Assembly: GCA_008632985.1 (NCBI GenBank)
Contig: QPGO01000086.1
Location: forward strand, 186,001 to 250,000
Source: Psammoneis japonica
Taxonomy: Eukaryota
DNA length: 64,000 bases
Direction of reading: 5' to 3'
In this document: positions 1 through 31,400 of the stretch, in pieces
How positions within the stretch are numbered: position 1 is the stretch's first letter
Layout: each line of letters opens with the position of its first letter
Notes under the pieces: generated by a model
The model's input: only the letters and a program-made list of their open reading frames with translations
Database searches by the model: none
Told to the model about the DNA's origin: nothing
Program-made: the position numbers and the translations under genes

Positions 1-49
1 GGACCTGGTTGCAAACCAGTTCACAGCAGTCCCGTGTCCACCAGAGGAG

Positions 50-1705
50 ATGGGCCTCGCCGCCGCTGGCACATTTGTCCTGGACGACACGGGGATGGCT
101 GCGGAGATCACGGCGCACCCTGAAGGGTTGGTGGGCCCCGCGGACCCGAGTGCAGCAAACACGGCAGAAGTGCGTGCGCGATTCACGATGCACGTTCCGT
201 TCGCCTGCATGAACATGCTTCTCCCAGGGGGTCTGTCCCCGAAGCAAGCTTTCACACGAATTCTTGGAGCGGCTGCGGCCAGGAACGAGGTCGACGCAAC
301 ACGTCCTTTGTTGGACCATCTCAAGGTCGCGTGCACCGCCACGGCGGGGGACCCCCACGCATCGGCCGTTGCACGAGAGTGGCCAACCATGCCCCAGCCC
401 CCGAACGCGGCGCTCATGCGGCACTTCGACCAGAAGGTCAATTTCGACCTGCCGGGGCGTGACAAGCTTGTGCTTCCGCCCCATCACATCGCACCAGTGG
501 TGAGGGCAATCGATGGACTCACGACCGAGCAGTGTCAGACGCACATTGACGCGCAGGCACGCCAGCGAGCCGCCGAGCAAGGAAAGACGCCGGCACAAGC
601 GTTCGGCGATCCAGGCATGTACAAACTTGTGAGACTTTGCCAAGTGTACACCGAAGATCAGCTGCCACCCATGTGGCCACGCCTCGCGCGGGCTTCCAAG
701 GCGGGACGCATCACTGAGGTCCAGAACGCAGTTGATGAGACGCGCCGCGCCTTGGGAGCACGTTTCCGCATCCCGGTCACTGTGAGTTTGGCATCAAAAT
801 TGATGAGCCTCAACTTTGCTGGAGACAACAGAGATGACCCTGCCCAAGGAGTCAACCCGCACCAATTTGGTCTCACGACCCCAGAGCAAGCGCAGCAAAT
901 CACTCACCGTGCTGCCATGTGCCGCCAGATCCACGGAGGTGACAGTCGGCCCAGTCTCACCGATGCGATGGTGCTGGAAACGCCTGACGACGCACGCGTG
1001 ACCACCACCATCGAATTGCTCCAACATTGTTTGGAGAGCACACGTGTCGTGCTCGCAACACTGCTGGGCACGGGACACCCTGTGGTCCAGTGCTTCACGG
1101 ATTCCCGGCAGGACCTGGACATGTGCGCCGAGGACCTGGCTGTGGAGTGCTCCCGGAATCCAACACCAGCAGCAGACATCCAGCGTCATGTGCAGGTGGA
1201 GCTCATGTCTTGGTTTTGGCTGCAGGAGACAGCCTGCAACACCGCGGTCCCATTCCATGTGCACCGAGTGGTGGGCGATGCTTCAAAGGGAAACGATTTG
1301 TGGCGTCACATGCTGCCCCCTACAATTGCATTGGTTTCCGGGAGCGTGCCCGCCCCAACTGCTACGACTCCCTCGTTGGCCCAGCCCGTGGGTGGTGCCG
1401 TGCAAAATCCACGCCCAGGCGTGCCGGGCGACAACACGCCAGTGCGCAACCCCCAATGCGACGAATGCTTCAATGCCGTCCGCGATCATCCCAACATTGG
1501 GTCACGGGAGGTAAAGTGGTGTTGCACTCAGAATGGGGTCGCACTGCCAGTCGACGCGCAAGGAAACCCACGGTGCCTCCCGCACCACTTGAAAGGGCAG
1601 CACAACTCAAACTGCGGGTGTGCAGCGGACCATCACAACAACCATGCGGAGAGCGACCAGGCAAACCTCCTCACGTGGGCAATGGAGCATTGGAAGACCG
1701 AGTGG
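50..1705 (+). pseudogene. gag-like ORF1 of the YR retrotransposon with C-terminal CCCH-like zinc finger
   Basis: CLPHHLKGQHNSNCGCAADH resembles the C-x7-C-x3-C-x5-H finger of such gags; TGG at 1703-1705 may be an erased TAG stop (inference). Confidence 0.6.
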
Positions 1706-4354
1706 GTCTTCGGCAACGGCCCGAGCTTGGGGACTCTGGGCCGAGAGCCTTTTCAGCTGCCACCGGCATCGTTGGCAGTGCTGCCACCCCCGCAGGCGGA
1801 GAGATCCACAGACAGCAATGGCCGCAGCACCTCACGTGCGCAGGCTGTTGCAGACGCTGTACAGACTGACAAACTGGGCAAGCGAACACTGCGTGACACA
1901 CAATTGCTGCGTCTTAGAGGACCAAGTCACTTGTTGCGTCGCCGCAGCGGCAGAGGGGACTGGGGACCGTTGCACCGCACACGCAAGCACCCAGCCCACA
2001 GGCTGCTGCAAAACTGCAAGCACCGCGGCGTCCCCACAACCCTCGCAGACGCACCTTGGACACCTCAAGAGCTTGAAGCAAGTTTGGCCAGGGGGCCACA
2101 CAAGTCCGCTCACGAACATGTCGAGTTCCTGCGGGAGGACATGGCCGGCTACGTCGACAAGGGTTTCTGGGTGGTCCTCCCATGTGAGGACATGAAGAAT
2201 GCCCCAGGATTGCGGCTGAGCCCCATCGGCGTGGTGCCCCAGCATGGTCGGCGACCACGACCAATCGTCGACTGCACCTTTTACGGCACCAACGACGCGA
2301 CTCAGCCCAACACCCTGATGGAAGCCATGCAGTTCGGACGCACCCTGGACCGTTTGCTGTGCCGCATTTTGCTGGCAAATCCATCGCACGGCCGGGTGTA
2401 CCTCATGAAAGTGGACCTCGCTGATGGCTTCCATCGGATGCACCTTAACCCCAATGATGCCCAACGACTCGGGGTGGTTTTCCCACATTTGCCGGGCGAA
2501 CCCCCTTTGGTGGCCATGCCCACACGGTCACCCATGGGATGGGCCAATTCGCCACCGTGTTTTAGTGCCGCCACCGAGACGGCAGCGGACCCAGCTGACT
2601 TACAGCCAGTGCGCGCCGCGACGGCGCCACCACACCCATTGGAGCAATTGGCATCCAGTCGGGTGCCAACCCATGTGCCCCCACCAACTTCACCACCCGC
2701 AACAATCGCCATGCCAATTCCGACGTCACCGGACCCACACCTCAACCCGAGCCGCCGCCGGCGCCTGGCCTACATCGACATGTGCGTCGACGACTTCATT
2801 GGCGCCGCGCAGGGGTCCGCCGCAGCCCGAAGAAACACACATCGTGTGTTGTTGCACACAATCGACGATGTCTTCCGCCCCACGGATTCGAACGACGTTG
2901 CTGCCCGCAAAGAGCCCGCATCAGTCAAAAAGCTCCGCAAGGGTGACGCCACATGGTCTACACAGAAAGAGGTGTTAGGCTGGTCAATTGACACCATGGC
3001 AATGACACTCCAACTTGCCCTTCACTGGCGTGCACGTCCACACGACACACTCTACAAGGACTTCCCCCGCACATGCAAACGCGTCACCGTCCAGGATTGT
3101 CAGAAACTCCTGGGAGAACTGCGTTCCCTCGCGGTGGCCATGCCCGGCTCGTGAGGTCTGTTCTCCAAATTACAGGAGGCCCTCCGCCACACTGCACCGG
3201 ATTCACGCATCCGACTTGCGGCCAACGTACATTCCACACTGGACGATTTTCGTGATCTGCACCAGACCCTGGACTCACGTCCCGTCTGCATCCAAGAGCT
3301 CGCACCACTGCCTCCAACTGTGCATGGCTGTCACGACGCTGCCGGCCACGGGGCTGGCGGGGTGATCGCACCAACACCCACCGCAGTCCCACGAGCCACC
3401 AAGCTACGCTGTTCCTCTGGCCGGCGTCGCATCCAACGTGATGCAGGCCCTGTCGCGTGGTGCCTGCGATTCCCCAAGGACATCTCCGACTCACTCGCCA
3501 CGCATGAGAATCCACACGGCCCCATTGCCAACATCGACCTCGAACTAGTCGGCAGCATCGTCCACACCTGCGCAGCTGCCGACACTTGCGACATCCGCGA
3601 GCGCACCAACCTAAACCATGCCGACAACCTTGGCACCATGTGTTGGCAACGCAAGGGATCAACTGCCACAGTCAAACCGGCTTCAAAGCTCCTCCGGCTC
3701 CAAGCATGCCATCAACGCCAACATCGTCACACAGGCCTCCATGATCACCACCCGGGCACTTGGAACCGAGCGGGTGACGACGCTTCGCGCCTGCAACACT
3801 TGTCTGACGTCGCGTTCCTTTCTTGTTTGAGCTCCACTTGCCCACAGAGCAAGTCTTGGCGTCTGTGGACCCCGCCACCCGAACTGCGTTCTTACATGAT
3901 CTCGGCACTGCGCAAGAAGCAGTGCAACGCGGCATCACCTCTTCCCGAGCCTCCGCCGCCGACACCCACTGGAACCTTTGGATCGACTTTTGCCGCCAAC
4001 TGGCCATCAGTCCATTTCTCGAAGACACCAATGATCCCATCCTCTTCCTCCAAGTGTTCCTCCATCGATTCCGCACCGGTGTCATCACACCAAGAGGCAA
4101 TCCCGTCTGGGCGCGCACCGCTGAGGATGCCCTGCGGTCGGTTGGGCAGACGTTCGCTGCAATGGGGTCCGCGGACCCACGTCTCACACCCCAGGGCGAC
4201 ATGGATTTCCGTCTTGCCCGCCAAATCCGTTTTTACAAGAAACAGGATCCGCCGCCCGACCGCGTTAAACCAGTCCCAGTCATCGTCCTCCTCTGGATCT
4301 TGCACGCCGCTGCCCTTGGCAACAGCGCCGGCACCAAGGCCATTGCGGATGTGA
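1706..4354 (+). pseudogene. Reverse transcriptase-RNase H ORF with one in-frame TGA at 3152-3154
   Basis: RLSPIGVVPQ, KVDLADGFHRM, PMGWANSPPCF, CVDDFI, KEVLGW; reads through the TGA as PGS*GLFSKLQEAL into RNase H motifs HDAAGHGAGG, DLELVG, DN, NRAGDDASR (ORF 3320 is in frame with ORF 50). Confidence 0.9.
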
Positions 4355-5001
4355 TCGCAATCACCTTTTTCTTTTTGCTTCGCCCGGGTGAATGCACAGC
4401 CATGCCATCTGACACCACTCCGTTTCGCCTGGCAGATCTTTGTTTGACCTCGGGCGGAGCACATTTGAACCTCTTTTCCACCGAGGCCCCTGCCCTCTTC
4501 GCCGCCACCCTCAGCTCCCTCACTTTCACCACCCAGAAAAATGGCGTTCGCGGCGAAGTCATTGCGCACGGCCTGTCAGGCCACCCAGACCTGTGCCCAA
4601 CCAGGGCCCTCGTCTGCCGAGTTGTTCACTTGCGCACCTGCGGAGCGCAACCCGACACCCCCCTGGGGGTGCACTTTGAGAATGACAGGTGGCACGCCGT
4701 CTCCCCTGCCGACATCACGTCGGCACTTCGCACCGCCATTGTTGCCCCAGGTCCCGAGAACCTGGGCTTCACACTGGCCGATGTCTCATCCCGCTGCCTT
4801 CGTGCAGCAGGCGCAACGGCGCTGTTGTGTGCCCATGTCGACACCGACCTGATCCGTCTCTTAGGCCGGTGGCGCTCTGACGAGATGCTGCGCTGCTTGC
4901 ACCTACAAGCCGAGCCCACCATGCGTGGCTTTGCACAAGCCATGCTCGCTGGGGGCAATTTCGTGCTTCACCCGAATGCTGAAGCACCCATTGCCCCGTG
5001 A
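3823..5001 (+). pseudogene. Tyrosine recombinase of the retrotransposon; catalytic Tyr replaced by Cys
   Basis: FFFLLRPGEC, QKNG, LCPTRAL, CLRAAGATAL, LGRWRSDEMLRCL. Confidence 0.9.
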
Positions 5002-5100
5002 CAGTGCTCCACCAGCCCTCCAGACGGGCCCACCCGCCCAATCCCAATGCATGTTTGGCTGGCTGCTGCACCGCCTGCACATCAGTGGGTGGCGCTGGAA

Positions 5101-5310
5101 GCCCTGCCGTCCAGCTTTGGGCAGGGAGAAAACCTTCACAGCGCTGGCAAAGCCATCTCCACTCCAAGTGCACAATGCATTCCATGAAGTTTTACATCAC
5201 TTTAGAAGAGAGCGCGCGACCAGTGGTTTGAACCCACCGTTTCACCCCAGAAGCACGCTCGTCCATCCCCGATGCGAAGCGCGCATGAGCAAAGCGGTGG
5301 CAACCGCTGT
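5101..5310 (+). repeat. Split direct repeat B1 (210 bp)
   Basis: Matches 5498-5707 except at 8 dinucleotide sites. Confidence 0.95.
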
Positions 5311-5497
5311 CCTCATCCAGTGCCAGAATCGGGGAGAAGACCCATCACCTGTTGAACCACGTGCGCACGTTGAACGTGCTGCAAGGGTTGGTTGTTGTTT
5401 TTCTTCGGTCACCGGCCTGTCTCATTCTTTCAAGATCGACAAAGACAAGCCGCTGTCGTCAGCGCAGTTTGATCGCTCCCACCTCTCCCACCCTCTG

Positions 5498-5707
5498 GCC
5501 CTGCCGTCCAGCTTTGGGTGGGGAGAAAACCTTCACAGCGCCAGCAAAGCCATCTCCACTCCAAGCACACAATGCATTCCATGAAGTTTTACATCACTTT
5601 AGAAGAGAGCACGCGACCAGTGGTTTGAACCCACCGTTTCACCCCAGAAGCGCGCTCGTCCATCCCCGATGCGAAGCACGCATGAGCAAAGCAGTGGCAA
5701 CTGCTGT
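5498..5707 (+). repeat. Split direct repeat B2 (210 bp), probable element 3' end; the 5311-5497 spacer is the putative A2
   Basis: Direct repeat of 5101-5310. Confidence 0.95.
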
Positions 5708-6824
5708 GAGTCAGACGGTCATGTGGCGCACATTGAATGCAAAAATGGGACAGGCGCGGACAAATGAATGTACAATGCAGTGCAGCGGTGACTCTGCCAG
5801 CTGCCGGTAGCCAGCTGCTGCTCTCTCTAAAAGAGAGTGGCGCAGTCGAGTAAAGAGGGCCTGCTCTGGCTCTAGCTGGGGCCCCACAGCACCAGTTGAT
5901 GTTCATTGAATTCAATTTTACATGCCGAAGTTAATCGTCACTGCTTTCTCGATGACACTGGACGGCAACAATCTCTGTGTTGTGTGCTGCTGCAGCTTGA
6001 GAGTTGCGACAGTCACCGAAATTCCCCAAATCCATCAGGACTTGACTTCAGACTTTGTCGCACTCAGGGATTGGAATCTGCAACCTGAGGGGAGGGCTTG
6101 GTTCAACATCGTGGGTCATTGGCGCCAGCACTGCATCCACTTGTTGTGCATCATGAGGCTGAGTTGACTCAGAAATTGAGTCGGGAATGATCAGATCTTG
6201 TGCAGCAAACTTTGCACATGTTCCTGTGCACAAAGCTGTGCAGGTGCTGCAGGCATGTGCCTTGCACACTTGTGGAACCCAGTGCTGAGGAGGGTTTGTC
6301 TCAGCCGAGCCCAATGAAAATGGTCCAAGCAATGAGGTGGAGACCAATGAGGTGGGTTGAAAATGGCCAAGAACAACCCAAGCATGGAGGGTGGATGACA
6401 GGGAGGGGGGCTTCTGCCCACCCAGAAGGCCACACCATGACAAGCTTTGGTCGTTCTTGGCCAATGTCAACCCCATCAAGAAGTTGCAACCAAGGTGACT
6501 GCATTGATTGCAAAGGAAGTGTGAGTGGGGTCTCTGGCTGTGAGGATTTTTGTGTTAAAGCACAAACACGCAATTGCATAGAGGGCATTTCATGTGCAAG
6601 ACTTCAGTGCAGGTGCGCAACGAGGACGGTTTGGCTCGCTGTCTTTCTTGGTTCTTTCAAAACACAATCTAGTCTACTAAACTTCGAACGCCACATTTTT
6701 GTTGATCTTTTGATTTCCTGGAACAGAGAAAGACAGAAGGGACAGTTGGACGTCAAAACTAAAGGATAACAAAATGCAAGCTACTTTAAAGTCCGAGGCA
6801 TTTCAGATTTCACAACATTGCCTC

Positions 6825-14753: not shown

Positions 14754-14959
14754 GGTGAAGTTCCTTGTTGTTACGATTGCATATGGGTAACACGGGGTCT
14801 CTCGAAGGGCAGGCGGTTCTCATTTTCAATTTTGTGTCGTTTTGTGAGTGAGAAGATAGGAGCACGTAATCAATGGTGGCGGAAGTGTCACGATTCGATT
14901 CATTCTATTTTTTTCATGTGAATGCATGTCGCATCATGATCATATCTTTTTTTCGAAAT

Positions 14960-15980
14960 TGCACCCTCCGCTCGCTGTCGGCATTTTCCATGTTGCATGT
15001 TATGTTGCCATCGTTCTGCTGCATTGATGTTGGTGGCAGCTCAACTTTTGATGGACGTTGACCTGTTAAAGAAGGGAGAGGCAACCTCAGACATGAGTGG
15101 CAACACACCAACACACAACACCAAGGACCACAAAAAGGAGCGCTGAGAAGGAATGTCATGAGTGGTGACAAAGTCTTCCAGCTCTTCTGCAAAGCCCGCA
15201 TCATCTAGCTCAAACAGCAGAACCAACCCCCGCTGGAAGGCTTCGTTGACATCGCTTCCTCTGCCGCCATTGTGCTGCAAACAGCAACGCTCTCAGACTT
15301 CCAGAAATTGTGCACAGGTGCATGAGCTGCTCCTGTGGCAGGACAATTTGTTCTGGTGACAACTTTGAACAATTGAGGTCTTTTTGGGTTAGAGAAAAGA
15401 AGTGCAAGGATTTGGTGTGCAGCTGCGGCGGGTCAGCACGACACTCCAGAGGCTCCGTTCTTGCAAACATTCTGAAGGAGAGTGGCCAGGGGAAACCAGA
15501 AAAGAAGGGGCACAGGTCTTGAATGAGCATGCCAACATTGGCGATGATGCAATGACCATCGGTGCACTGGGTCAGTCCTGTTTGTGTGACTGGGAATGCT
15601 GGAGGATGAGAAAAAGGCCTTTGAGCTTTTCAGGCATGCTTGCAACATGGGTTGTGCTCATTCTGCTGCCAACCTTGTCACCTGCTGCAACAATGGAGTG
15701 GGAGCAAAACTGCACCGAGCAATGGCCATGAAGTGAAACAAAGCAGAGGCCAAAAGAGGCTTTGCTGGTGAATGTCAGTGCAATCTTGGCAGATTGTCAA
15801 TGAGTCCTTGACCTTTGTCAAGGCCTTTGGCAGCCCATTCTTTGAGTGCTGTGAACAGTGAGGAGTTGGATGAAACAATTTGGGGCCACCAGGTTGCCAC
15901 GGGTGGTGGAAATTGATTCGAGAGACGATCCGAGGTGCACAAATCGTCTGTTGTCGTTCGCACACGTGCAGACGATTTAT
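14960..15980. other. TpA-depleted, TG/CA-rich block; probable decayed repeat
   Basis: Very few TA and reduced CG compared with flanking genes; no credible ORF. Confidence 0.6.
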
Positions 15981-16334
15981 GTGCACCGCTGGATGGAGCT
16001 GGAGGCGAGCGAGACGATGCGTTGAAGTACAGTACGGTATGAGGAGCACCGGAAGAGTGGTCATATTTCGGAGTTGATAATGGGCATAGGTGTCGAGTAG
16101 ATCAGAGGGCGAGCGTGTTTTTGAGTTATTGCATCGACTAGGTTCTGGGAACTTAGTTTAAGTTACTTTGCATGGGCAGAGAGCTGCGCATTGTAGAACT
16201 TTTCACTAAATCTTTTTATTTTTTGTCGATCGGAAGCAGATGGGATAGCTTCACGCACTGTGACTGACTTATACAACAAAATCGTCCTACAAAAGGCAGC
16301 AAAAGCATTCATACGAATCCCAAAATAAGAGCAA

Positions 16335-17323: not shown

Positions 17324-18463
17324 ATGAATGAGACGCAACAAGAACACGGACATGGTTGTCAACCGTCGTGGCTCTCAACAGAGTCGTATGGCTTGATCGT
17401 TTTGGTATTATCGGCCGTATTGTTTTCCGTCATGGGAACCTTTCTCAAGCTCGCGACGGACACAGGCTTACCATCCACGCAAATGGTTTTCTTTCGGGCT
17501 TTCTTTCAAGGCTCCGTGGTTGTGATTTGCGCGTGTTTTTGCAGAACCGCTCAAGGCAATCTCGTTATTACAAGACCGCTTGGTGATACACGAGAAATCA
17601 GCAAGATTGTCATATTGAGAGGTGCCATTGGAGGAATGGGGTTTTGTTTGTACTTTTTTACATTAAGCGCACTGCCTCTTGGCGATGCGATTGCGACTCT
17701 GTCCTTGTATCCAATTGCAACCATTTTCTTTGGAAGATTCTTTTTGGGAGAGCCCATCAAGTTTCTTCATGTGATTGCGGCGATTGCCAGTGTCGTTGGA
17801 ACAATATTGATTGCGAGTCCATCATTTATGTTTGGCCCACAAGAACAACAGAATAATAGCGATGTGAATCCAATTGGATACGTGACGGGTGTTTTGGGTT
17901 CATGCTTTGCGTCCGGTGTCGTGACGCTCATTCGAAAGGCAGGCATGGTGGGTGCCCATACGCTCCAACTCTTGCTTTCCTGGGCATCCTTTGGACTCTT
18001 GTTCAGCCTATTCTTTGGATTGATACCGAGTGTTGTGCTGAACAGCAATGACGACGCATCATGGCAATGGCCAAACAATTGTTGGTTGTACATTTTCGCC
18101 GCCTGCACGATTGGATCAGCGGCACACTTTATGCTCAATTACGCCGGTCGATTGACGCCCGCCAGCTTGGCAGCCATTGCACGGTCCACTGACATTTTAT
18201 GGGCCTATCTGTCTCAGGTTTGGGTCTTTGATGAAATTCCTACAAGCAGAACTTGCGTGGGCGTTTTGCTCATTTGTGCTGCCCTAGTAGTTGTCATTTG
18301 CGTTCAACGACGAGGTGTACAAGAAGAAAGCAGTGGTAATGTTCCGGTTGGAGCTGAAAAGATACCAACCCATGATTTCATCGAGGAGAATTGTCAAGTT
18401 GAAACAGGTATAGAATTGGACAGTGCAAAGGGCAAGTTAATGAACGGCTCAGCGCAGAACTAA
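17324..18463 (+). CDS. EamA/DMT superfamily transporter (SLC35G-like)
   Basis: About 10 TM segments; LRGAIG, LPLGDA, FFLGEPI, LIASP. Confidence 0.9.
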   Translation: MNETQQEHGHGCQPSWLSTESYGLIVLVLSAVLFSVMGTFLKLATDTGLPSTQMVFFRAFFQGSVVVICACFCRTAQGNLVITRPLGDTREISKIVILRGAIGGMGFCLYFFTLSALPLGDAIATLSLYPIATIFFGRFFLGEPIKFLHVIAAIASVVGTILIASPSFMFGPQEQQNNSDVNPIGYVTGVLGSCFASGVVTLIRKAGMVGAHTLQLLLSWASFGLLFSLFFGLIPSVVLNSNDDASWQWPNNCWLYIFAACTIGSAAHFMLNYAGRLTPASLAAIARSTDILWAYLSQVWVFDEIPTSRTCVGVLLICAALVVVICVQRRGVQEESSGNVPVGAEKIPTHDFIEENCQVETGIELDSAKGKLMNGSAQN

Positions 18464-18774
18464 ACGGTCTCAACGCGACACAGCGACACACCTTGTCAGC
18501 ACGCATACTCAACTGCCTACCAGGATGGGTCATTCTTCCCATGCCAATAGCGAATAAGGGGGACAAGGATTGATTATGGGGTAGGTGCACTACTTTGGAA
18601 GTCACTCTGCTACTGTCTTTGTATGTTCAATGCGAGCCACGAGTAGTTTCAGAATGTACATACGTTTATCTATGACAGGAGGTTAGTTCACCCAGTGCTG
18701 TTTTCCAACTCCGTCGTAACGGTTACATCTAACTCTGCCTTTTCCTAATCTAACTTTTAGGTCGATATCTGTAG

Positions 18775-19452
18775 CTAATCATCTGACTCGTCGTCATCGA
18801 CCTCATCTTCCAACAACAACTCATCGTCATCGAAGTCATCTTCCGACTCTTCCAACAGTAACTCATCTACTAACTCGTCGTCGACTTTATCCGCTTCCTG
18901 TTTCCCTTCTGGATCTTTTCCCCTCTGTGGTTCACCAAGCCTCCGTTTAGGGCATCTCACTGTGAATCTCTTTTGAATAATGAATCTTGTACTCCTCTTT
19001 TTAGGGGAACCGCCACAGCCGTTGCTTCCCCAGACCTCTCCGTAGACCTTCATGCTCACATCTTGTCTCCACCTGGGAAACCTGGGAAATGAACAGACGG
19101 CATCAGTAGCAATGTCGCGAAAGGGACGATCGGGGTAGTCGGAGAAAGATCTACACTTGACCGGTGGGTCGTTCCCGTTGTTTGTAGTGACGGAATGCGT
19201 CATACATTCTCTTGCTTGGCGGTACGCTCGTTCCCGAATCGTATTGGGAATGTAACTGCCTCCCAAGCCCGTTACCCTGAATTCAAAGGGCCGCACGTGA
19301 CGTGGCCGGCTGCCATAAGCTGTGGATACGGTAAGACGGTATGCCGCTTTGCAGGAGCACTTGTATGTCTTGGCGGCGCACGCCATGACAAGCAATGTGG
19401 AGAGCGACATGCGTAGGCATGAGATCCAGTTTAGGGATAGTGCAGTCTTCAT
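18775..19452 (-). CDS. Secreted Cys-rich cationic protein with RRL site and acidic tail (copy 1)
   Basis: Signal-like N-terminus; Arg-rich Cys-containing core; KRRLG followed by an Asp/Glu tail; intact paralog at 26865-27539. Confidence 0.8.
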   Translation of the reverse strand: MKTALSLNWISCLRMSLSTLLVMACAAKTYKCSCKAAYRLTVSTAYGSRPRHVRPFEFRVTGLGGSYIPNTIRERAYRQARECMTHSVTTNNGNDPPVKCRSFSDYPDRPFRDIATDAVCSFPRFPRWRQDVSMKVYGEVWGSNGCGGSPKKRSTRFIIQKRFTVRCPKRRLGEPQRGKDPEGKQEADKVDDELVDELLLEESEDDFDDDELLLEDEVDDDESDD

Positions 19453-20105
19453 TGTTCTGTTTTTTCTAAGTCACACTTGATTTAATCTTTACATCTGTTG
19501 GATGTGTGCTTTTGTAGTTTGAGCTCCGAAGCTTGCCGAAATGCAATTTTGCATCGCGTAAGCTACTGATTTTAGTGGTATATTTCACATCAAGAGTCGA
19601 CTCAAAGTCGCGATCGCGACTTTGTATCCCCATTCTAGCCAATGATGGGATAAACATGCACGAAAACGAGGAGCACTAAACCTTTGTCAATCTGCGTCAG
19701 GTATGCTATTGGTTTGAGTCTTATAATATTCTGCATCGCGAGTTGACGACTCAAAGTCGCACGAAGCGACACTTGCCACGAGCCAATTGTTGAATAGACT
19801 ACACTAGAAGACGCGATATGAAACGTTCTTTGACTAGAAGTCGCGATCGCGACATGAAACGAAATAGAATCGCACCGATGCTTAACATGATAGCAAGCTG
19901 ATTAAAGTCGCGATCGCGACATGAACGGGAAGATCAAAATTGTGGGAACAAAAAAATGTCGTAGGTCGCGGTTCTCGTGGGACTCGAAAAAGGGTCTTGA
20001 CTGTGGAAGACGGAAGGAGGGCAAGGCGAACGAGTGAAGAGGATTCTTTGTTACATGCCTGGTGCAACAAGGCGTTTCAGCCACAACAAAAGGGGCGTCA
20101 GTCGC
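19421..20105 (+). repeat. Gene-start/promoter segment, copy A (largely intact)
   Basis: Aligns with 20218-20932 and 27508-28412. Confidence 0.9.
19603..19624. promoter_or_regulatory. Perfect 22-bp palindrome CAAAGTCGCGATCGCGACTTTG, candidate cis element
   Basis: Identical at 27694-27715; core GTCGCGATCGCGAC recurs at 19840, 19907 and 28019; function is inferred only. Confidence 0.4.
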
Positions 20106-20217
20106 ATGAAGGGAAACTTGCCACGAGCAAATTGTTGAACAGACTGCACTGGAACCACTGGAAGTCACGACAGCATGAAACACGATCTTTGGCTGCTGGA
20201 AGCCACGATCATGACAC

Positions 20218-20932
20218 GAGATCCAGTTTGGGGACAGCCCAGTCGTCATCATTCTGTTTCTTCTAAGTCAAAATTGAGTGAACATTTGCATCTGACAGAT
20301 GCTTGTTTTTGCAATTTATGAGCTCCGAAGCTTGCCGAAATGCAATTTTGCATCGTGCAAGCTGTGCCACTTCAGCAAACTTTCACATCAAGAGTCAACT
20401 CAAAGCCGCGATCACGACTTTGCAACCCCATTCAATCCAATGATGGGACAAACATGCATGAAAACAAGGAGCGCCAAAGCTTTGTCAATCTGTGTTGAGC
20501 ATGCTGTTGGTTTGAGTCTGGCAATGTTCTGCATCGTGAGTTGACAACTCAAAGTTGCGCGAAGCGACACTTGCCACGAACCAGTTGTTGAATGGATTGC
20601 ACCAGAAGATGCAATGTGAAATGATCTTTGACCAGAAACTGCAATTGTGACATGAAACAAAACAGAATTGTGCTGATGCTTGACATGACAGCAGCTGCTC
20701 ATCAAGAGTTGCAATCATGGCACCATGAACAGGAAAATCAAAATTGTGTGTGAACAAAATGTCGCAGGTCACGGTTCTCGTGAGACTCAAAAAAGGGTCC
20801 TGACCAAGCAAGATGGGAGAAGGGCAAGGCAAATGAAGCAAATGAATTTCTCAGCAAAGAGAATTCTTTGCTGTGCGGCTGGTGCAACAGGTGCATTTCA
20901 GCCGCCACAACAAAAGGGGCATCTCAGTTGCA
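20218..20932 (+). repeat. Gene-start/promoter segment, copy B (TA- and CG-hypermutated)
   Basis: Colinear with copy A, with TA->TG/CA and CG->TG/CA changes throughout. Confidence 0.9.
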
Positions 20933-21499
20933 GGTGGAAACATGTCGTGTGTGAGGCTGTGTAAAAAATGCATTCTCAAGTGGAGGGAATCTCACTTTTG
21001 GATTTTTTGCTTGTCAGTCATGGCATTTTGTGGCTGTGCTGTCACCTGGGCCTGGTGTGCTTGATGGCTTCTGCTGCAGCCTCTTTTCAATGTGCTTTTT
21101 TTTCCAAATTGTGAGCTCCTCTGTCAGGGCTCTTTTTTCCAACTGATGTCCCAGATGTGTTTTTCCTCCATGGGTTTGCTGCAATGTGGGACTCTTGCCC
21201 ATGCTGCAGAGCTCATGACTGAAACTTCTCTCTGCCATTTTCCCCTCATGATCATGTCCAGATGCCATGTGTTCATCATGCTGCAATGCGGGGCTCTCTC
21301 CCCCATGCTGTGGAGCTTGTGATTGAAACTTCCCTCTGTTTTACTCTCCCCTCACGATCATGTCCACATGCCATGTTGTGCTTGTCATGGCCAACAAATG
21401 CTGCCACATGTTTCTCAAACAAAACCCAAGCTCTGCATTTGAAGGTGCTGCTGCGCTTCCACCCTGCAACTCCAGCAGCGAGCGCCAGCCCAACACACA

Positions 21500-24300
21500 C
21501 ACACACACAGCACACAAACTGCATCATGGCAGGGGCACTCAACAACTGGCCAAGATTGGTGTCACCCTCAGGTGATGCCCCACTGAAATGACTGGCAGTG
21601 GCATGCATGCTGTTGCAGCAAAGTGTCAAGCACCATGCTGATGCTTGACTTGACTGTGCAGTTCATGTGTGCAGAGTGAGCAAGATGTTCATCCGCAAAA
21701 TCCAACAAAAGCTCCCTGCCCTTTGCAAAGCCCACGCTGACGCAGGAGCAAAAAGCCTTGACTTCAGCTTTGGCACTCTGGTGTTGAGATGATTTTGCCA
21801 AGTTTCAGAGTCATGTGACCATGAGTGCAGTCATTGTGGAAATCCCAAAGTTCCTGCCATTGCCGCCCAATCCAGCCATTTCCCACTCAACAAAAGGCTG
21901 TGATGCAGTCTGCTGGCCAGAAGATGTGGCATCTGGATTTTGTCCCACAAGGAAGAGAAGTGACTTCTGAACAAATGGTGCCACCCAATGTTGCCATGAG
22001 AATGAAATGCCTTGACAAGGACACTTTGATGAATCTTGTCCAGGTGGAAAACTTCTTCACAAAACCACCAGAACACAAGAGCAGACAAGAGCAAGTCATG
22101 ATCATGCAGGGAAGGAGGTGTGTGGTGTGTGCATCAATGTTGTCACATTTCTTGCACAGGTGCCTTCCAACACCAGGCTCATCATTGTGTGGGGGCATCA
22201 AAGAATGTGGCCCCCATCTTCCATTGGGTTCTGACAGTGGATGCAGCAATTGTGGGTTGCAGCGGTGAGTGACTTTTTGTTTGTTCGCAACAAATCCTGA
22301 GTGAGCTTGACAGTGCTGATTTTCCTGCACACAATGTGTGACATCAACTTGGAGTGCACACTGTCCAGTTGATCAAAAAAAAAACCACATCAGATCTGCT
22401 GCACTTTTCTTGCATGCGCACTGCTGCAAGACAGAGCCCCAGAGGAGGGCTCTCTTCATCATCAGGTGAGGGACATGCAGCAAGGAATTTAGAGACATTC
22501 TAGACCAACAAGGAACTTTCACAAATGCAAATCTGCCCAACACAGAAAAGCCCCCTTTGGCAAAACTCTGTCAATTGAAAAAAAAACAAAGAAAGGAGAG
22601 AAGGCCACAAGCTTCAGCTTGATGTGGGGTGAATGTTGGAAGCTGAGCACAAGCCCAGTGGAGTCAACAAATGGCAAGACATTGACAGTGAGAGTCCTTC
22701 CAAAAGCACCATGAAAGTGAATGATTGAAACATTGCCACCTGCCACAGCTGGCAAAGACACCAAAGATTCTGCCATTTTGGCAAAGACCAGCACTCACAA
22801 GGTGAGAGATCAGCAGATGAGGAAAACTCCCACTCAGGCAAGGATGATGGAATTGCGTGTGAAAACAATCAAGAGTGGGAGGGCTGGATGGCAAAAAAAG
22901 GCTGTTGCACAAAAGGGCCAAATGTGACAATGGCTGTCATGTGCAGCATTTTCCACAGCTGGAGATGCCAGTGGAGAGAGAGGTCTGGAGCTGACTCCAG
23001 GTTGCTCACAGAGTCCACTGTGCCATCAGCCAGAGGAGAGTGTGCACCAAATCCCACAGCTGACCCAACACATGAAAGCTCTTCTGATGACTCACAACAA
23101 TGCACAGAGAAAGACACACACATGTCATTGGCAGCAGACACAGCCCACTGACCCAGTGGTTGCTGCAATTTCAAGGCATCATCCTTGCAAAATGGAGACA
23201 CATCATGTTTCTCAAATGGGTTCCCTGGCCTGTGTCACACTCTTGGACAGAGGTTTGGTCATCTCCACTCTCTTGTCCAAAAATGGCACCAATGGTGCCC
23301 TCCACTCCTTTCAACTCCCATCTCAGAAAATGTTGTTTCACTTGCTGGTGGTGGTGTGTGCACCCAGCAACACTCCAAAAGTCAATGTGATCCTTTGATC
23401 CTTTGTCATCCCCACACACAATTTCATGGGTGGCTTCGCTTCTAAACCTGCACCACTCAACACTCTCATTGCAAAAATCACATCATCCTGAGCAAGTGAA
23501 CAAGTTCTTGCACAGAATGATCCCATGCATCTGTTGCATGCAGCACTGCAGCCAGCATTGTCTTGTGCTGCATCAAGGAGAGTGCCCACTCCATGCGCAA
23601 AAACACATGTTCAGAGCCACTCTTGCCTGCAATCTCAAACAAATGGCTCTTGCTGCTGCCCCACTTTGTGCTCACCTTAAAACACAGTTGACAATTTGGA
23701 GTCACCCCCATGCAGCACTTCAACACAGGCTTGAGTCCCTCATGATGCACTGCTGCTGCTCCCAATGTAGATGACCTTGATGACTTCCCCACAGAACTCA
23801 ATTGTTCTGGTCACATTTGGCTCATCACACCCAGCAGTTCACCAAGAGCAACATTTCTTTTGTTCAGCCTTGCTCAACAGGTTTGTCCATGCTTTGCTGT
23901 TCACAAGAAGTGTTGTCTCACCTGTGCAGCTGCTGGGATGCTCAGCACCTTTCCTTCTGTGGCACAAATCAAATGCATCTTCAAAGCTCTGAGTCACAGC
24001 TGTTGGAGTCAGCTTTGTGCTGCCATTTTTTCAATCAACAACAACCTTGCACCCAGCATTTTTTTGAGTTCTCTGATTTCACCACAGTCAAACAAATTTG
24101 TCATTTGCTTCTCAACTTCTTGAGTGCACTGTGTTTTGGTTCACAAATGTGAGGCAACCTTCTTGTCAGCCCAAGTCAACCACAATGCGCCAACAAACCA
24201 TTTGAATTGCAAACAAGGACCAGCCTTGCTTCTTTTGTGTTTCATCTTCTTGAGCATGGCTGGGTTGATTTGAACAAGCTGCTGTTGCATTGGTGCACAC
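21500..24300 (-). mobile_element. Heavily mutated non-LTR retrotransposon (LINE) 3' relic; limits approximate
   Basis: Minus strand 22245-22189 reads CIHCQNPMEDGGHIL*CPH (CCHC knuckle with CGA->TGA), preceded by LINW..VKL..DLL and followed by IGWHHLFRSHFSSLW. Confidence 0.6.
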
Positions 24301-25755
24301 ATGGGCAGGTGTGTTCTGCGACATGCAAAATCAAATGAAGAATGGTGTCACACAGTCACCTTGGAGGTTGTGGTTGCACCCCACCAATCCCCCCCCCCCC
24401 CCCTGGGACAGTTCTTCCGATGGAGGCCATGACAACACTGCACTCGGAGTGTCAGATTCATGCCCTCTTTCAGAGTTCAAGCAGGTGGCAACTCTTTGGG
24501 CTGGGTGGCGAAGATCATCCTTGCTTGCAGCTGCTCACCACACCAAGAAAGCTTGCAAAATGCAAGAACACTGGTGTCTCTCACAGGGTTCATCCTCATT
24601 GCTGGAGGAGGTCTGCGATTGATCTGCAGATGGTTGAGGACTAGTGTGGGGAGTTGTTGATGTGCACAGAGCTGAGTTCACACTGGAGGACGAAGTCGGG
24701 CATTGTTTGGTCATCATGGTGTGGTCAGGTTGCTGTTTGCTGCTGCCTCCAGCAAAAGAAATTCTCTGCCGTGTGATGACCGTCGTCCGGTGATTTGTAA
24801 GTTGTAAGCGGCACAAAAACGAAGCACCATACGCACCACCATGGCGTGCGAGACCCAGCACTCTACTACGGTACTCCGTAACTATGAAGAGTTGGCTCAT
24901 AATACGTTGTGACCTTGTTCTATACACTATGAAGTACATTGTCATTGCTTGGAATTTTGATTTAAGGCGAAGGATTATCATGAGTATTACAACCAAAGTG
25001 ACGAATGATTTGCAAGTCGAAATTTCGATCTCGTACACAACCGAGCTCCAGTCGAAGTTGTTGAAGCCAAATTAGAATGAAACCAAGTCGTTATCAAAGG
25101 TTTATCCGGATATGTCAAAGTTGGGGGCTTCTGTGGCGCTTCCCAAGTCAGTTATTGGATGATCCAGCAACTTCAGAATCGTTGATAGAAAAATCACCAT
25201 GTTTCGCTCGGGAAGCAGCACCAAGATTTCGAGCGGCAGAAATTCAAGAATGAACAGCGTTGGGAGAGGGAAGAATACAAGAAAATTCTCGAGTACTTCA
25301 CATTATGGACCTTTTGAAAACCACTTTCAGAAAGATGCGCAAAAAACGCCCAACATGGCGAGTGCCGCCGACGCGCCAACAACCGTTGTATATTTTCCAA
25401 TGCCGCTAACAGACTACGTGACTCTTTCATCTACCGGTAAGAACACGAGGGCAGCTTCAATGTTGTCACAGAATGTCACACCCGGCAGTTCTTTGAGTTT
25501 TTCTCTCGGTCAAGCCGGGCCACACTCGATAGTGGTCTTGAAACCCTTCGTTCGAAAATAAAGTCACGCATTGTGAGAATGAAATCCACACATCTGTTTA
25601 AAGCTTTTCTGAGCCGGGTTGTACCGGAAAACATGGATTGTGTGTCTCTTGCTGCTCGCCCGGTCCGTCGCATTGCGAGGCGGCGACTCGATGTTGTGCT
25701 GCGCGGCATGCAACAACAGCGAAACGACTGAATTTACCGTATGATGCGCTTGGAC

Positions 25756-26552
25756 CAAGACCGCTCCGTGACACGCGAGAAATCAGCAACATCGTTGCAT
25801 TCAGAGGTGCCATTGGAGGAATGGGGTTCTGTTTTGCACTTTTATACAATGAGCGCGCTGCCTCTTGGCTGTGCCATTGCGACTCTGTCCTTGTATCCCA
25901 TTGCAACCATTTTCTTTGGAAGATCCATCAAGTTGCTTCATGTGATTGCGGCGACTGCCAGTGTCGTTGGAACAACATTGATTGCAAATCCATCATTTTT
26001 GTTTGGCCCACAAGAACAAGATAATAATATCGACGTGAATCCAATTGGATACATGACGGGTGTTTTGGGTGGGCGCGCGCTTTGCCTCCGGTGTCGTGAC
26101 GCTCATTTGGAAGGCATGCATGCTAGCCTGTTCTTTGGATTGCTCCCGAGTGCTGTGTTGAGCAACAATGACAATTCATCACGGCAATGGCCAAACAACT
26201 GTGGGTTGTATGTTTTCTCCACCTGCACAATTGGAGCAGCGCCACACTTCATGCTCAATTGCGCCGGACGCTTGACGCCCGTCAGCTTGGCAGCTATTGC
26301 ACGTTCCAGCGACATTCTATATGGGCCCATCTGTCTCAGGTTTGGGTCTTTGATGTAATTCCTACTAGCAAATCATGCGTGGGCGTTTTGCATTCAACGA
26401 CGAGGTTTACAATAAGAAAGCAGTAAAAATGTGCCGGTTGGAGTTGCGAACATACTAACCCGAGTTTTCAACGAGGAGAATTGTCAAGACGAAACAAGTA
26501 GAGAGTTGGGCGGTGCAAGGGGCAAGAGAATCAACGGCTCAGTGCAGTACGA
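25756..26552 (+). pseudogene. 5'-truncated, frameshifted copy of the EamA transporter
   Basis: Aligns to 17571-18463 with deletions and frameshifts. Confidence 0.9.
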
Positions 26553-26864
26553 AACGGTCTCACGGCGACACTGTGACATACCTTGTCAGCACGCATACTC
26601 AACTGCCCATCAGGCCAGGTCATTCTTCCCATGCCAAGAGCGAATAAGGAGGGATGAGGATAGATTATGGGGTGGGCGAACTACTGTGGAAGTCACTCTG
26701 CTACACTCTTTGCATGTTCAATTGAGCCACGAGGAGTTTCAGAATGTGTTTACGTTTATCTATGACAGGAGGTTAGTTCACCCAGTGTTGTCTTCCAACT
26801 CCATCGCAACGGTTACATCTAACTCTGTCCTTTCCTAATCTAACTTTCAAGTCGATATCTGTGG

Positions 26865-27539
26865 CTAATCGTCTGGCTCATCGTCATCGACCTCATCTTC
26901 CGGCTCTTCCAACAACAACTCATCGTCGTCGAAGTCATCTTCCGACTCTTCCAACAATAATTCATCTACTAACTCATCGTCGACTTGGTCCGCCTCCTGT
27001 TTTCCTTCTAGATCCTTATCTGTCTGTGATTCACCAAGCCTTCGACCAGGGCATCTCAGTGTGAATTCTTGAATGGTGAATCTTGTACTCCTCCTGCTAG
27101 TCGAACCGCCGCAGCCCTTGTTTCCCCAGACCTCTCCATAGACCGTCATGCTCACAACTTGTCCGGGGTCATTCCATGGGCAGACGGCTCCAGTAGCAAT
27201 GTCGCGAAAGTGACGATCAGGGTAGCCGGAGAAAGAACCCCCTCTACACTTGACCGGTGGATGGTTCCCATTGTTTGTAGTGACGGAATGCTTCATGCAA
27301 TCTCTTGCTTTGCGGTACGCTCGTTCCCTAATCGTATTGGGAAAGTAACCGCCTCCCGAGCCCGTTGCCTTGAATTCAAAGGGCCGCACGTTATGGCTGC
27401 CATAGGCTGTGGATACGGTAAGACGGTATGCCGCTTTGCAGGAGCGCCTGTATGTCTTGGCGGTGCACGTAATGACGAGCAGCGTGGAGAGCAACAATCG
27501 TAGGCATGAGATCCAGTTTAGGAATAGTCCAGTCTTCAT
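26865..27539 (-). CDS. Secreted Cys-rich cationic protein with RRL site and acidic tail (copy 2)
   Basis: Intact ORF; conserved SCKAAYRLTVSTAYGS, PNTIRERAYR, VYGEVWG, RRLGE. Confidence 0.8.
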   Translation of the reverse strand: MKTGLFLNWISCLRLLLSTLLVITCTAKTYRRSCKAAYRLTVSTAYGSHNVRPFEFKATGSGGGYFPNTIRERAYRKARDCMKHSVTTNNGNHPPVKCRGGSFSGYPDRHFRDIATGAVCPWNDPGQVVSMTVYGEVWGNKGCGGSTSRRSTRFTIQEFTLRCPGRRLGESQTDKDLEGKQEADQVDDELVDELLLEESEDDFDDDELLLEEPEDEVDDDEPDD

Positions 27540-28429
27540 CGTCCTGTCTCTTTTAAGTCAAACTTGAGTTAAACTTTGTTACATCTGTTGGATGTGTGTT
27601 TTTGCAATTTATGAGCTCTACAAATTGTCGAAATGCAATTGTGCATCGCGTTTGCTGCTTTTTTACTCTTATATTTCACATCAAGAGTCGACTCAAAGTC
27701 GCGATCGCGACTTTGTAGCCCCATTCGATCCAATGATGGGATAAACATACATGAAAACAAGGAGCTCCAAAGTTCTGTCGATCTGCGTCGTGCATGTTAT
27801 TGGTTTGAGTCTCATAATGTTTTGCATCGCGAGTTGACTCAAAGTCGCACGAAGCGTCATTTGCGGTGATTTAATTGTTGAAGATACTCAAAGTAGCGAA
27901 TGCGATATGAAACGAAATAGAATCGCGGCTCTTTTAAAAGCGATGCTAACCATGATTTAGAAGTCGCGATCTTGTGTTTTTTGTAACTCTTGTATTTCAC
28001 ATCTAGATTTGACTCAAAGTCGCGATCGCGACTCCTTGACTCCAATCGCGCCAACATTGGGATGCACATGCATGAAAACAAATAGCACTACATCTGTGTC
28101 GCGTGCGTTATTTGTTTGAGTCTTACACATTTTGCATCGCAAATTGACTCAAGGTCGCATGAAGCGGTTGCTGAATATAGATTGCCATACACTGCCTCCC
28201 GATCGCGATATGAAACGAAGCAGAATCGGACCTACTTTGAAAGCGATGCTTACCATGCTATTAGCTGATCGCGATCGCGACATGAAATAATGGAAAATCA
28301 AAATTGTGAGACGGCCGGCAGACGGCATTTTGTGTCTTGTGTCGGTCGCAGTTCGCGCGGTTCTCGTCGTGCGGGACTCGTCAGGTCATTAAGTCCCGAC
28401 CAAGCAAGACGGCCCATGGGGATTTGCAA

Positions 28430-31400
28430 GGCATGCAAGCAAGGAATGCGCGACGCAAATGGCAATGCGGCAAATGGCAAACCGGGATCTTTTCAGAAGT
28501 GTTTGGTGTGGTGTGGTTAGCAGCAAGGACAAACCTGTGGAAGATCGGACAGATGTGAATGACCACCAAGTTGATTTTGAGAATGGGGGGGGGGGCCACC
28601 AAGAAAAAGAAAACAAGGGTGTCGTCCATGTGCAAAAGAGCAAACCCAGCACGGGTCTTGCTGTCTTCCCTTTTCAGTTTTCAAGGTTTACCTCCTCCAC
28701 CCCCATCTTTGCACACACACTTGCACTGTCAGCACATGCTGTGGATGTGAGATGAGATCATGACAAGAAATTGAAGCCAGGAGCTTTTGATTTGATGATG
28801 GGCTGTGTTTTGCGGGGGGGGGAGGCTGGCGGTCTGCTGCTGGGGGCAGCAGCACACGTGCAAGATGAATGGCTGCTGGTCAGATCTCTTGGGAGGCCAG
28901 GAAACCCATGAAATGCATCACACTTTCAGTTTGTCCAGCGGCAGCACTTGAAAGCTGGCGCGCCTCAAGCTTTGATGAATGGCTGGGTCAAGAGCGGGGG
29001 CTGTGTGGCCTGTGATGTGCTGTTCTTCAAACTCCTCTGGCGTGCCAGTGGCACTCCTTGCACTGGAAATTGTGCAGTCATGCAAACAGGGAGAGAGGCA
29101 CAGAAGCAGACATCACTCTGCACGCACAACTTGGTTCAAGTCCAAACTTTCTTTGTCTTCCCATGAGCTGCAGAGCACCTCAGCACCAAGTTTGGCCTTC
29201 AAGTGTGTGGGGCTTGTTTGAACGGCTGGAGTTGGGAGTTGTCAAGGTGCTGTGAGATTTCACACCAACCATCATTGGGACAAGCCTGGCTGCACTGCAT
29301 CACCATCTGAGGTGGTTGGAAATGACAAATGATGCAGCGCTTGTCTCTTTTGTTGGAAACCTGCGCAATGGATCCCTTCTGTCAGCTGGTGCTTGATCAG
29401 CTGAAAGGGGGCCATGTCCAGATTGACACACTTTGCATGGACCAGCTTTCATGGATTCAGAGAAAAGGCAGCGAGAGTCACTCACACAACATGGTCTCCA
29501 AAAATGAACTGGGCCCCCCTTCTTGTGCATTGTGAAACCCTTTCAATGAGTTTGGGCTGCATGAGAGGTTTTCTGCTCCACAACCATGAGTGCAGAGGAC
29601 ATTCAAGTTCCACTCAGTGAGAAAGAGAAGCAAAATTTGGTCAATCAACAGTCTTTGTCTGAAGCTCTGGGCACACATGTGCACCAAGCAAGAAAGACCT
29701 GAGACACACCCTTGACAATGCTTGGTGTCATTGCCTCAAGAAATGGAGGAGGAGCTGTTGACAGCATCAATTGCCAAGTTGTTGAGTGACTGCATGAACA
29801 GCTTCTAGAGTTCATGAAGGCTCAGCCAGATGCACAATTCACCCCCCTTCAAGAGGAAGTGTGGCTGATCTTTTCTTGTGCCAAGGTGGCATCAGTGTGC
29901 AATTCCTTGAAGAGCACATGCAACCCTCACTTGGCAGAGCAGCTCCATGAGTGCACAGCTGAAGAAATGTCCAGCAAATTTGCAGACCCATGTTCATTGT
30001 GACAGTGAGAACCTGGAACACTTCAGGAGCAGTGCAAGTCATCACAAGCAGACTGCAGAGAAAAAGACAGAAGGATGATCCCAGCACTGCATCTTTTTGA
30101 TGAATCCTTGTTTGAGTCCACTGACCCAAACCTTTCACTTGCTTTGCATTGTTGAGCTGTTTTTGAAGGCAGAGAGACAGTGTGAGAATGTGAGAAGGAC
30201 TTCTCCAAGAACCAGGAATCTGCTTTTTTTGCCATCCTGTCAAATCAAAAACTCTGTCAAAAGCAGAGGCCATCACACTCGCCATTGTTTGCAAGTGGCA
30301 AGATTGGGTTGCAGCCAGAGCCACCATGGACACACCAACGAATTTCAGCTGATGATGTTGTCTGCTGCCTGTTGTGAGATGATGCCGACATGCTGCTTCA
30401 GGAGGAAAAAAACTTTGAGTTAAAAGAGGCAAAAAAAGTGCAGAGCTGCACAAGGAGGTGACCCTGGCTGTCTGCAAGATTGCTCTGAGCACCATGATCT
30501 TGCTGGAAGTGAGAAAGTTCACTCTGTTGTGCTGCTGAGATGATGGCAAAAGCAGCTCCTCCACTGTGCTTGGAAGGACCAAGCACAGCTCAGCATGGAT
30601 CTGGCCAGAGCTCTTGACAAATGCAGAAAAGAAGGGTGTTGGCTCTTTAAACTGTTGACTGTCTGCAGCACGAACTTGTCAGAGCAATCTTGAGCCCAGG
30701 CCACAAATGTCCAGCCAAGATTTTTGACCAAACTGCCCAGACTTGTAAAAAAGTCTTGGAGCACATTTGCTGGAGCTTGAAGCCCCTTAGAATGTGGGCA
30801 AGTGGGTGCTCACTGCAGCCCACAGCAGCCTCAGCAAATTCCTTGCTGTCTGCAGCAGAGCACTTTGGGCTGCATTGCCCACCCAATGCACTCATGATGG
30901 AAGACCAGTGTCCTCTCCACTTCCAAGCAAATTGACATGTGACAATGAGTCAGACAAGAAGAGCATGCAAAAAACAAACCACTGCCCATGTCTGCCATGA
31001 GAAGAGTTGTGAGGAATGTCAGCGGAAATCTTCTTGGAAATGATCAGCGCAGCACACAAGCCAAGCAAGCAGATGCAAGAAACTCTTGCAAAGCCCACCT
31101 GAGATGGCAGAACAAGAGACCACAAAGCAAACTCAGCACTCCAGAGCAGTGTGGATTGTGATCCTCTGCTGCTCTCTTGCTTCCTGGCATGTTCTGCCTG
31201 CCTGGTGCTCCAGCTTCAATGGCCGCCCCATCTTTCCCAGCAGCAGCCAAGGCAGCATCCTGTGCATTTTTGCAAGTTCCCAAAAGAAGAAGAAGAAGAA
31301 GAAAAAGCAACCAGGGCAACACTCCTCATTGCATCTGTCGCTGATGCAGCTGCGGCTTTTTTCAAATGTGCGCGGCAACAGATGGCTTGGCAGGTGGTGT

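Follow-up and report, generated by a model that had tools for sequence, protein, structure and literature searches.

Background

Mutation-based defence is known as C-to-T change, as in fungal repeat-induced point mutation (RIP) and by APOBEC enzymes, and, within the literature searched, TA-specific A-to-G change has one close precedent, a 2026 preprint on a rhizarian alga. According to that preprint, integrated DNA of nucleocytoplasmic large DNA viruses (NCLDV), as well as of virophages, undergoes TpA-restricted hypermutation in Bigelowiella natans, with a mutation rate per generation raised about 1000-fold in some lines only (Mettrop et al., bioRxiv 10.64898/2026.01.13.699255). Here, we describe 64,000 nucleotides from the diatom Psammoneis japonica (assembly GCA_008632985.1, contig QPGO01000086.1, positions 186,001–250,000, forward strand; this whole stretch is called the window), which begin within a tyrosine-recombinase retrotransposon of Ngaro-type layout. 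The original prediction held that this element was disabled by systematic exchange of tyrosine for cysteine or histidine. We are confident that it is a broken Ngaro-type retrotransposon in which TA, on either DNA strand, became TG or CA; the likely agent is a host enzyme deaminating the A of TpA in silenced repeat chromatin. The change itself is TA-specific, two-stranded, regional, acts on DNA and is recent; it hits several transposon classes and a host duplicate and spares gene-rich DNA. Loss of tyrosine appears as one readout of this genome-wide TpA hypermutation.

As in B. natans, TpA becomes TpG or CpA only, on both strands and regionally, reverse-transcriptase and DDE genes are TpA-poor, and an ADAT2-like enzyme is an untested candidate (10.64898/2026.01.13.699255). 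Compared with the preprint, the present case lies in a different supergroup branch, and it targets several transposon classes plus a host duplicate, not viral DNA. Depletion is near saturation here, with an observed/expected ratio (o/e) of 0.03–0.14 versus 0.45 in the NCLDV region, and it accompanies CpG decay. Whereas the evidence of the preprint is a measured rate, ours is comparative, and the rate has only a proxy here, namely 6/43 versus 0/108 differing TA sites between probable haplotypes. The word “diatom” is absent from the accessible part of the preprint (10.64898/2026.01.13.699255), and a literature search, with subscription journals and bioRxiv supplements outside its coverage, found no report of TpA hypermutation in a diatom.

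RIP is similar in that dinucleotide-specific transitions on both strands amass in repeats, spread to neighbouring DNA and kill transposons. However, RIP makes stops by turning CpA into TpA, whereas the process described here removes TpA and stops. Duplication within the sexual cycle triggers RIP, which depends on RID. Its signature, C-to-T change at CpA with raised TpA, was not found, since TpA falls while CpA and TpG rise. Further, 15/30 loci of a transposon described below are TA-rich despite near-identical copies.

The diatom offers a near-saturated and apparently ongoing process on transposons, which can be followed site by site and whose target choice and enzyme are testable where CRISPR tools exist. 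Because stops are removed and not made, dead elements resemble intact long open reading frames (ORFs), which misleads annotation, transposon dating and models of GC content.

Structure of the element and its copies

Ngaro elements (order DIRS) are about 6.4 kb long, are laid out as A1-ORFs-B1A2B2 and carry gag-like, reverse transcriptase/RNase H (RT/RH) and tyrosine recombinase (YR) frames (PMC8547959); similarly, PAT-like and VIPER-like elements are reported to share the layout (PMC6681497). The element in the window agrees with Ngaro in its length of about 6.4 kb, in its A1-ORFs-B1A2B2 repeats and in its gag-like, RT/RH and YR frames, but differs from a typical Ngaro in that gag and pol share a frame, separated by a putative former TAG. 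Its parts are:

1–5707, plus strand: retrotransposon encoding a tyrosine recombinase, depleted of TpA, with split direct repeats in a Ngaro-type layout; upstream of the window, its 5′ part continues for about 647 bases
2–1702, plus strand: 3′ part of a gag-like ORF1, a name given by position alone; this frame is shared by a second family of the genome
1703–1705, plus strand: gag-pol junction codon, TGG in the window, putative former TAG stop
1706–3154, plus strand: reverse transcriptase part of pol; the conserved Tyr columns 2183, 2273, 2432 and 2783 have Cys/His, and a CpG-type TGA at 3152 ends the frame
3155–4354, plus strand: remaining pol frame, presumed to contain RNase H from its position and known motifs; no match in Pfam
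3808–5001, plus strand: tyrosine recombinase frame, 397 amino acids, open; codons 4393 and 4894 (the latter the predicted nucleophile) encode Cys, codon 4672 encodes His
5101–5310, plus strand: repeat B1, 94.8% identical to B2
5297–5477, plus strand: repeat A2, matching the 5′ A1 of four sister copies; the window copy is without most of A1
5498–5707, plus strand: repeat B2, the 3′ end of the element

Thus, B1, A2 and B2 of the split direct repeats lie in the window and A1 is found in four sister copies, while the complete layout A1-ORFs-B1-A2-B2 occurs in the second family, which is about 70% identical. The expected position of A1 in the window copy is occupied by TA-poor DNA resembling a long interspersed nuclear element (LINE). 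This LINE-like element, located directly upstream of the window on the minus strand (L031:2-5327), has long open frames of 1115+ and 634 amino acids, a predicted endonuclease (PF03372, E 1.8e-8), three tyrosines in 1115 residues and a TpA o/e of 0.17.

The frames follow in the order gag-like, RT/RH and YR, gag and RNase H being assigned by position alone. The long frame at 2–3154 covers 1050 amino acids and is open at its 5′ end; counted from the ATG at 50, it has 1034. A Pfam scan of the three element frames gave nothing beyond a weak RVT_1 match below the cut-off (E 0.042) in the RT frame, for which 376 relatives were found at 1e-30. The recombinase frame has no Pfam match, shows SRCLRA where HxxR is expected, and carries Cys at the Tyr of 118/120 relatives. 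A protein search with the gag-like frame returned no relative, so the end of gag is not readable from proteins. As the layout is common to PAT-like and VIPER-like elements and the relatives returned carry no family names, “Ngaro-type” should be read as a structural label. A genome search with the element gave 41 matches, among them six other near-full copies at 88–94% identity; most others are near 70%.

Tyrosine codons and TpA depletion in the window copy

The codons named in the original prediction are present (TGG at 1703, CAT at 2432 and TGC at 2783, 4393 and 4894), and the motifs IVDCT, DGFHR, SPPCF, CVDD, RPGEC and GRWRSDEMLRC are found in the translations of 2–3154 and 3808–5001. TpA has an o/e of 0.14 over 1–5707 and 0.17 over 1703–4896, while four gene-rich stretches have 0.55–0.77. 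In the element, TG and CA are elevated, at about 1.45, and its CpG o/e (1–5707) is 0.87. Tyrosine accounts for only 7/1050 residues of the long frame and 1/397 of the recombinase frame. Still, the statement that every Tyr codon is hit went too far, as the window copy retains eight Tyr codons and 31 TA steps.

The ancestral residues were judged from 120 recombinase and 150 RT proteins. Recombinase relatives keep Tyr at 4393 in 115/120 and at 4894 in 118/120 cases, and the number of tyrosines per recombinase relative is 2–12 (at least five in 116/120). In RT relatives, Tyr is found in 141/149 (2432), 107/140 (2273), 83/136 (2183) and 81/124 (2783) proteins. Among 11 columns with Tyr as the top residue (at least 40%) in relatives, the window has Cys or His in seven, Tyr in three and Phe in one. 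Since relatives have Tyr and single copies still read TAY, the change went from Tyr to Cys/His by TA-to-TG/CA steps, as proposed. For two motifs the proposal holds in part. The TGC codon of CVDD is present, but Phe is frequent in this slot (41/124 relatives), and the Tyr of YxDD is not itself catalytic. SPPCF is likewise present, but a TA-derived origin of its Cys is not firm (Tyr in 49/133 motif matches); the codon reads TGY in all seven close copies.

Tyrosine loss is only part of the damage. Of 45 changed conserved residues, five are Tyr losses via a TA step, five are TA-type changes elsewhere, 11 are CG-type and 24 are other changes. No sister copy shares the pol stop TGA at 3152; five have CGA and one has CGG, so that it is by its sequence a CpG-type change. 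CpG decay thus damages the element comparably to TpA loss, and the wording centred on tyrosine was overstated.

Two database proteins show the same Cys/His-for-Tyr pattern, P0002 (two Tyr in 391 amino acids) and P0305 (none in 283), one record each among the 120 recombinase and 150 RT relatives. They hint at the same process in other material.

Sister copies read differently

It had been set beforehand that the proposal would be checked by asking whether all copies share the Cys/His residues. They do not: the residues differ among the seven copies, which read as follows (order: window, C82, C145, C22, C294, C9, C7).

Codon 1703: TGG, TGG, CAG, TGG, CAG, CAG, TGG
Codon 2432: CAT, CAT, CAT, TGT, CAT, TAT, TGT
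Codon 2783: TGC, TGC, TGC, TAC, TAC, TAC, TGC
Codon 4393: TGC, CAC, TGC, CAC, TGC, TGC, TGC
Codon 4894: TGC, CAC, TGC, TAT, CAT, CAT, TAC

This mixture of TG and CA among copies is expected of a TA that can be hit on either strand. Over the 21 copy pairs, which are not independent of each other, CA-versus-TG swaps make up 1622/2991 adjacent double mismatches; six of the seven other double-transition classes have 39–176 and the CG/TA class has 14. Even the window copy and the copy closest to it (0.28% transversions) disagree at 48/139 CA/TG sites.

In a survey of 30 recombinase loci out of the 41 genome matches, all 30 have a TpA o/e of 0.02–0.27. The predicted nucleophile is Tyr in six, Cys in seven and His in 17 loci, the RPGEY Tyr is kept in three, and none has both key tyrosines. 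States shared between copies are richer in synonymous changes (odds 2.0–3.5, p 0.0006–0.09), which reflects either inherited, tolerated TA losses in active lineages or admixed ordinary subfamily divergence. In the second family (L121–L129, nine separate insertions), the predicted nucleophile is CAC in eight and TGC in one. A spread of this family after loss of the catalytic Tyr was considered and rejected, one copy having TGC; as 25 non-synonymous sites are common to all four tested copies of a subfamily, site bias can explain CAC in 8/9 insertions. One member, L125, is without about 2.2 kb of its interior.

The gag-pol junction

The suggestion that the 1034-residue gag-pol fusion arose by TAG-to-TGG change at 1703–1705 is most likely correct, judging by the TGG/CAG states across copies. 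In 15 copies of the two families, the junction codon is TGG five times, CAG ten times and never CGG; the second family, of whose nine insertions eight span the junction, contributes CAG seven times and TGG once. Both TAG and CGG are possible sources of TGG and CAG; TAG was seen in none of the 15 copies. CG sites stay CG in 2103/2861 cases (0.735), yet no copy has CG at the junction, and pol relatives align from ORF residue 574 onward only. The mixture of TGG and CAG, the lack of CG and the start of the pol alignment together argue for a former in-frame TAG, whose loss likely fused gag and pol.

Bases 1691–1735 around the putative gag stop are conserved between the two families, which are only about 70% identical elsewhere and have gag and pol in one frame; the conserved bases may be a signal for stop read-through. 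In a folding test on one sister copy, the 96 bases 3′ of the junction did not surpass shuffled sequences (z +1.0), which leaves a read-through hairpin unsupported.

TA is changed in place on DNA

Two kinds of sequence other than the element bear on the target, a miniature inverted-repeat transposable element (MITE) and a host tandem duplicate:

58819–60149, plus strand: non-coding MITE of Harbinger type with inverted ends of 48 bases; TA is erased in the left part but not at the right end
19418–20099, plus strand: control, the copy of a local tandem duplicate in which TA is normal, outside the TA-poor block
20215–20923, plus strand: TA-erased copy of that host duplicate, inside the TA-poor block 19892–24830

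The MITE is 1.33 kb long, has no ORF above 104 amino acids and is flanked by 3-base TNA target duplications, as read by eye. Of its 30 loci in the genome, 15 are TA-rich, 14 TA-poor and one is intermediate. Pairs were counted below 2% transversions (7 of 14 pairs). In these, 260/347 TA steps are now CA (151) or TG (109), whereas A-to-G or T-to-C change affects 36/2771 other sites; A:T-to-G:C transitions are thus restricted to TpA. In the host tandem duplicate, 25/29 listed TA steps have become CA (15) or TG (10), all in one direction, and 30/43 CG steps read TG/CA. Therefore, the target is the TA dinucleotide and not tyrosine, and the damage to tyrosine recombinases and YxDD polymerases, supposed to be especially effective, is incidental.

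A TA-poor flank (o/e at most 0.24) was found at 14/14 TA-poor MITE copies and was absent at 10/15 TA-rich copies, and in the window MITE the change fades toward the gene-side end. It seems that location, not duplication, decides targeting, since many near-identical MITE copies are untouched.

Terminal repeats are expected to be near-identical at insertion (PMC6681497). In 22 pairs (3967 columns), we counted 125 events of TA or CG type (35 CA/TG swaps, 35 single TA-type, 55 CG-type) versus 33 others (18 other transitions, 15 transversions). The repeats now differ, so the change took place largely after insertion, copy by copy. Moreover, copies C294 and C9 show 99.3% identity across 10 kb including their flanks and are probably two haplotypes of one insertion, although a recent segmental duplication would look alike. 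In their repeat DNA, 6/43 TA and 48/567 CG sites differ, compared with 0/108 and 2/170 in the flanks. The TpA process still separates these probable haplotypes, hence it is recent and appears to be ongoing.

Possible mechanism and rival explanations

In the preferred explanation, a host enzyme would deaminate the A of TpA in DNA to inosine, which is read as G. TAY, TAA and TAG codons start with TA and become Cys, His, Trp or Gln codons. As Tyr codons and these two stops are converted, frames are left open or become fused, and the recombinase is deprived of its predicted nucleophile. In parallel, CpG decay (CG to TG/CA) acts on the same DNA, young elements losing TA well before CG. We slightly favour inosine formed on DNA as the lesion; a TadA/ADAT2-like enzyme is a tentative assignment. 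Guidance by methylated heterochromatin is fairly probable. In diatoms, DNMT5 methylates CG in transposon islands (PMC9998398); this would explain the CG-to-TG/CA decay in the same blocks and could supply the guiding mark, but cannot remove TpA. On balance we lean towards a process selected as a defence. A wider reading, which we consider doubtful, would see a chromatin-guided natural adenine base editor of TadA/ADAT type in diatoms, a mirror image of RIP shared with Rhizaria and perhaps old in the supergroup SAR (stramenopiles, alveolates and Rhizaria), whose effect would be that none of the 30 sampled recombinase copies has both key tyrosines. A natural DNA adenine deaminase, if true, would be relevant to base-editing work.

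The sequence context gives mixed hints of the enzyme. Strand choice leans to YTAC (CTAC 129 versus GTAG 35; TTAC 113 versus GTAA 56), and YTAC is the core of the TadA motif YTACGAA (PMC12255301). TadA/ADAT2 editing also needs a 5′ T, shares the YTAC lean and typically results in Tyr-to-Cys change, but TadA edits RNA and needs TACG, whereas here DNA is changed in all TA contexts (PMC12255301). The genome contains five PF14437 matches and two PF02137 loci; its deaminases include a TadA-like gene, an ADAT2-like gene and dCMP deaminases, and no deaminase fusion was evident by eye in the printed frames. In the ADAT2-like locus L072, the motifs are HAE, PCIMC (split by an intron) and GCRNDRFGG, with the Asn noted in the B. 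natans preprint. HxE, PCxxC and this Asn are usual in eukaryotic ADAT2, so these motifs do not discriminate.

Several observations weigh against the deaminase explanation. A-to-G change on one strand is by sequence inseparable from T-to-C change on the other, and the deaminases of the genome look ordinary, none being tied to the process. ATAC exceeds GTAT (26 versus 14), counter to a simple pyrimidine rule, and YTAC/GTAR sites are most often spared in the MITE (59/197 kept, with 9/82 for TTAT/ATAA and 0/33 for ATAC/GTAT), which counts against YTAC as the best substrate. Also, 5/15 TA-rich MITE copies adjoin TA-poor DNA, and heavy CpG decay is no precondition, the element having a CpG o/e of 0.87 at a TpA o/e of 0.14. 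Agreement of copy states is higher within clades (0.64–0.77) than across them (0.55–0.68), which suggests that some states predate insertion. Finally, the same sites enter the counts, those on strand choice included, through several copies, so their significance is overstated.

Some of these points bear on the rival that TpA is mutated in place through a thymine lesion (oxidation or another G-pairing modification) or through error-prone repair or translesion synthesis in heterochromatin, maybe as a by-product. The two bases of a T:A pair cannot be told apart in sequence, the most fully erased contexts are A/T-rich (ATA, TAT) and not the TadA motif, and the deaminases are not unusual. On the other hand, the strict dinucleotide rule and the YTAC strand lean fit a motif-reading deaminase, and the authors of the B. 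natans preprint favour A-deamination, albeit without a test (10.64898/2026.01.13.699255). Altogether, we hold a thymine lesion to be rather unlikely. Editing of the element's RNA from A to I by an ADAR-like enzyme with UA preference, fixed via reverse transcription, would suit a retrotransposon in a genome with two PF02137 loci, and ADAR favours a 5′ U (10.64898/2026.01.13.699255). We judge it very improbable, however, because strands are hit about equally, so that sense Tyr-to-His changes occur, because the ORF-poor MITE and the host duplicate are hit as well, and because probable alleles of one insertion differ, as do the two ends within single insertions.

Ordinary CpG deamination is real in these blocks and has the same TG/CA products, and Cys/His might in principle be natural to the family. 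For the Tyr sites this origin is refuted by the Tyr of relatives, the TAY codons of copies and the TA-rich MITE copies, which fix the direction; at the junction, 0/15 copies have CG despite the retention given above. Its remaining probability is minute. Miscalls of long reads at modified bases can follow a motif, which would make an assembly or base-calling artefact conceivable. Yet contigs of run X1 match 5663–6009 and 5985–6227 without a difference, although X1 may be the source sample and hence not independent, 138/644 records are at least 99% alike, the probable alleles are concordant at 147/147 TG/CA sites, and P0002 and P0305 show the pattern too. The chance of an artefact is therefore next to nil, and deamination of A in TpA by a host enzyme is retained as the preferred explanation.

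Other TA-poor blocks and genes of the window

TA loss in the window is confined to regions of mobile elements, with gene-rich DNA spared; the host duplicate within its block is the exception in kind. A scan of TpA o/e found the following further blocks:

51039–59756, strand not assigned: largest other TA-poor block, TpA o/e 0.03
5852–6675, 14944–16038, 19892–24830 and 28263–31642, no strand: further TA-poor blocks

The stretches 20100–24450 and 28500–31500 combine a TA o/e of 0.03–0.04 with a CG o/e of 0.15–0.18, have no Pfam match and are probably the end state of both TA and CG loss. Among 66 frames from TA-poor blocks, Pfam gave one real match, the endonuclease of the upstream LINE-like element; four other matches (E 0.017–0.034) were taken as chance. 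An older local duplication (17571–19825 and 25756–27914, 81%) has slight one-way TA-to-CA/TG change (26 versus 7 cases), an asymmetry that suggests weak spread past the block borders.

The genes of the window are intron-poor and rich in HSF domains; two neighbouring HSF-domain genes at 32020–32826 and 34089–34889 form a local duplicate pair. The gene-rich part also contains, at 41516–44572 on the minus strand, a 1019-residue NB-ARC plus TPR protein of NLR-like architecture. One host gene has relatives in Craspedostauros and Pseudo-nitzschia heimii at 36–43% identity.

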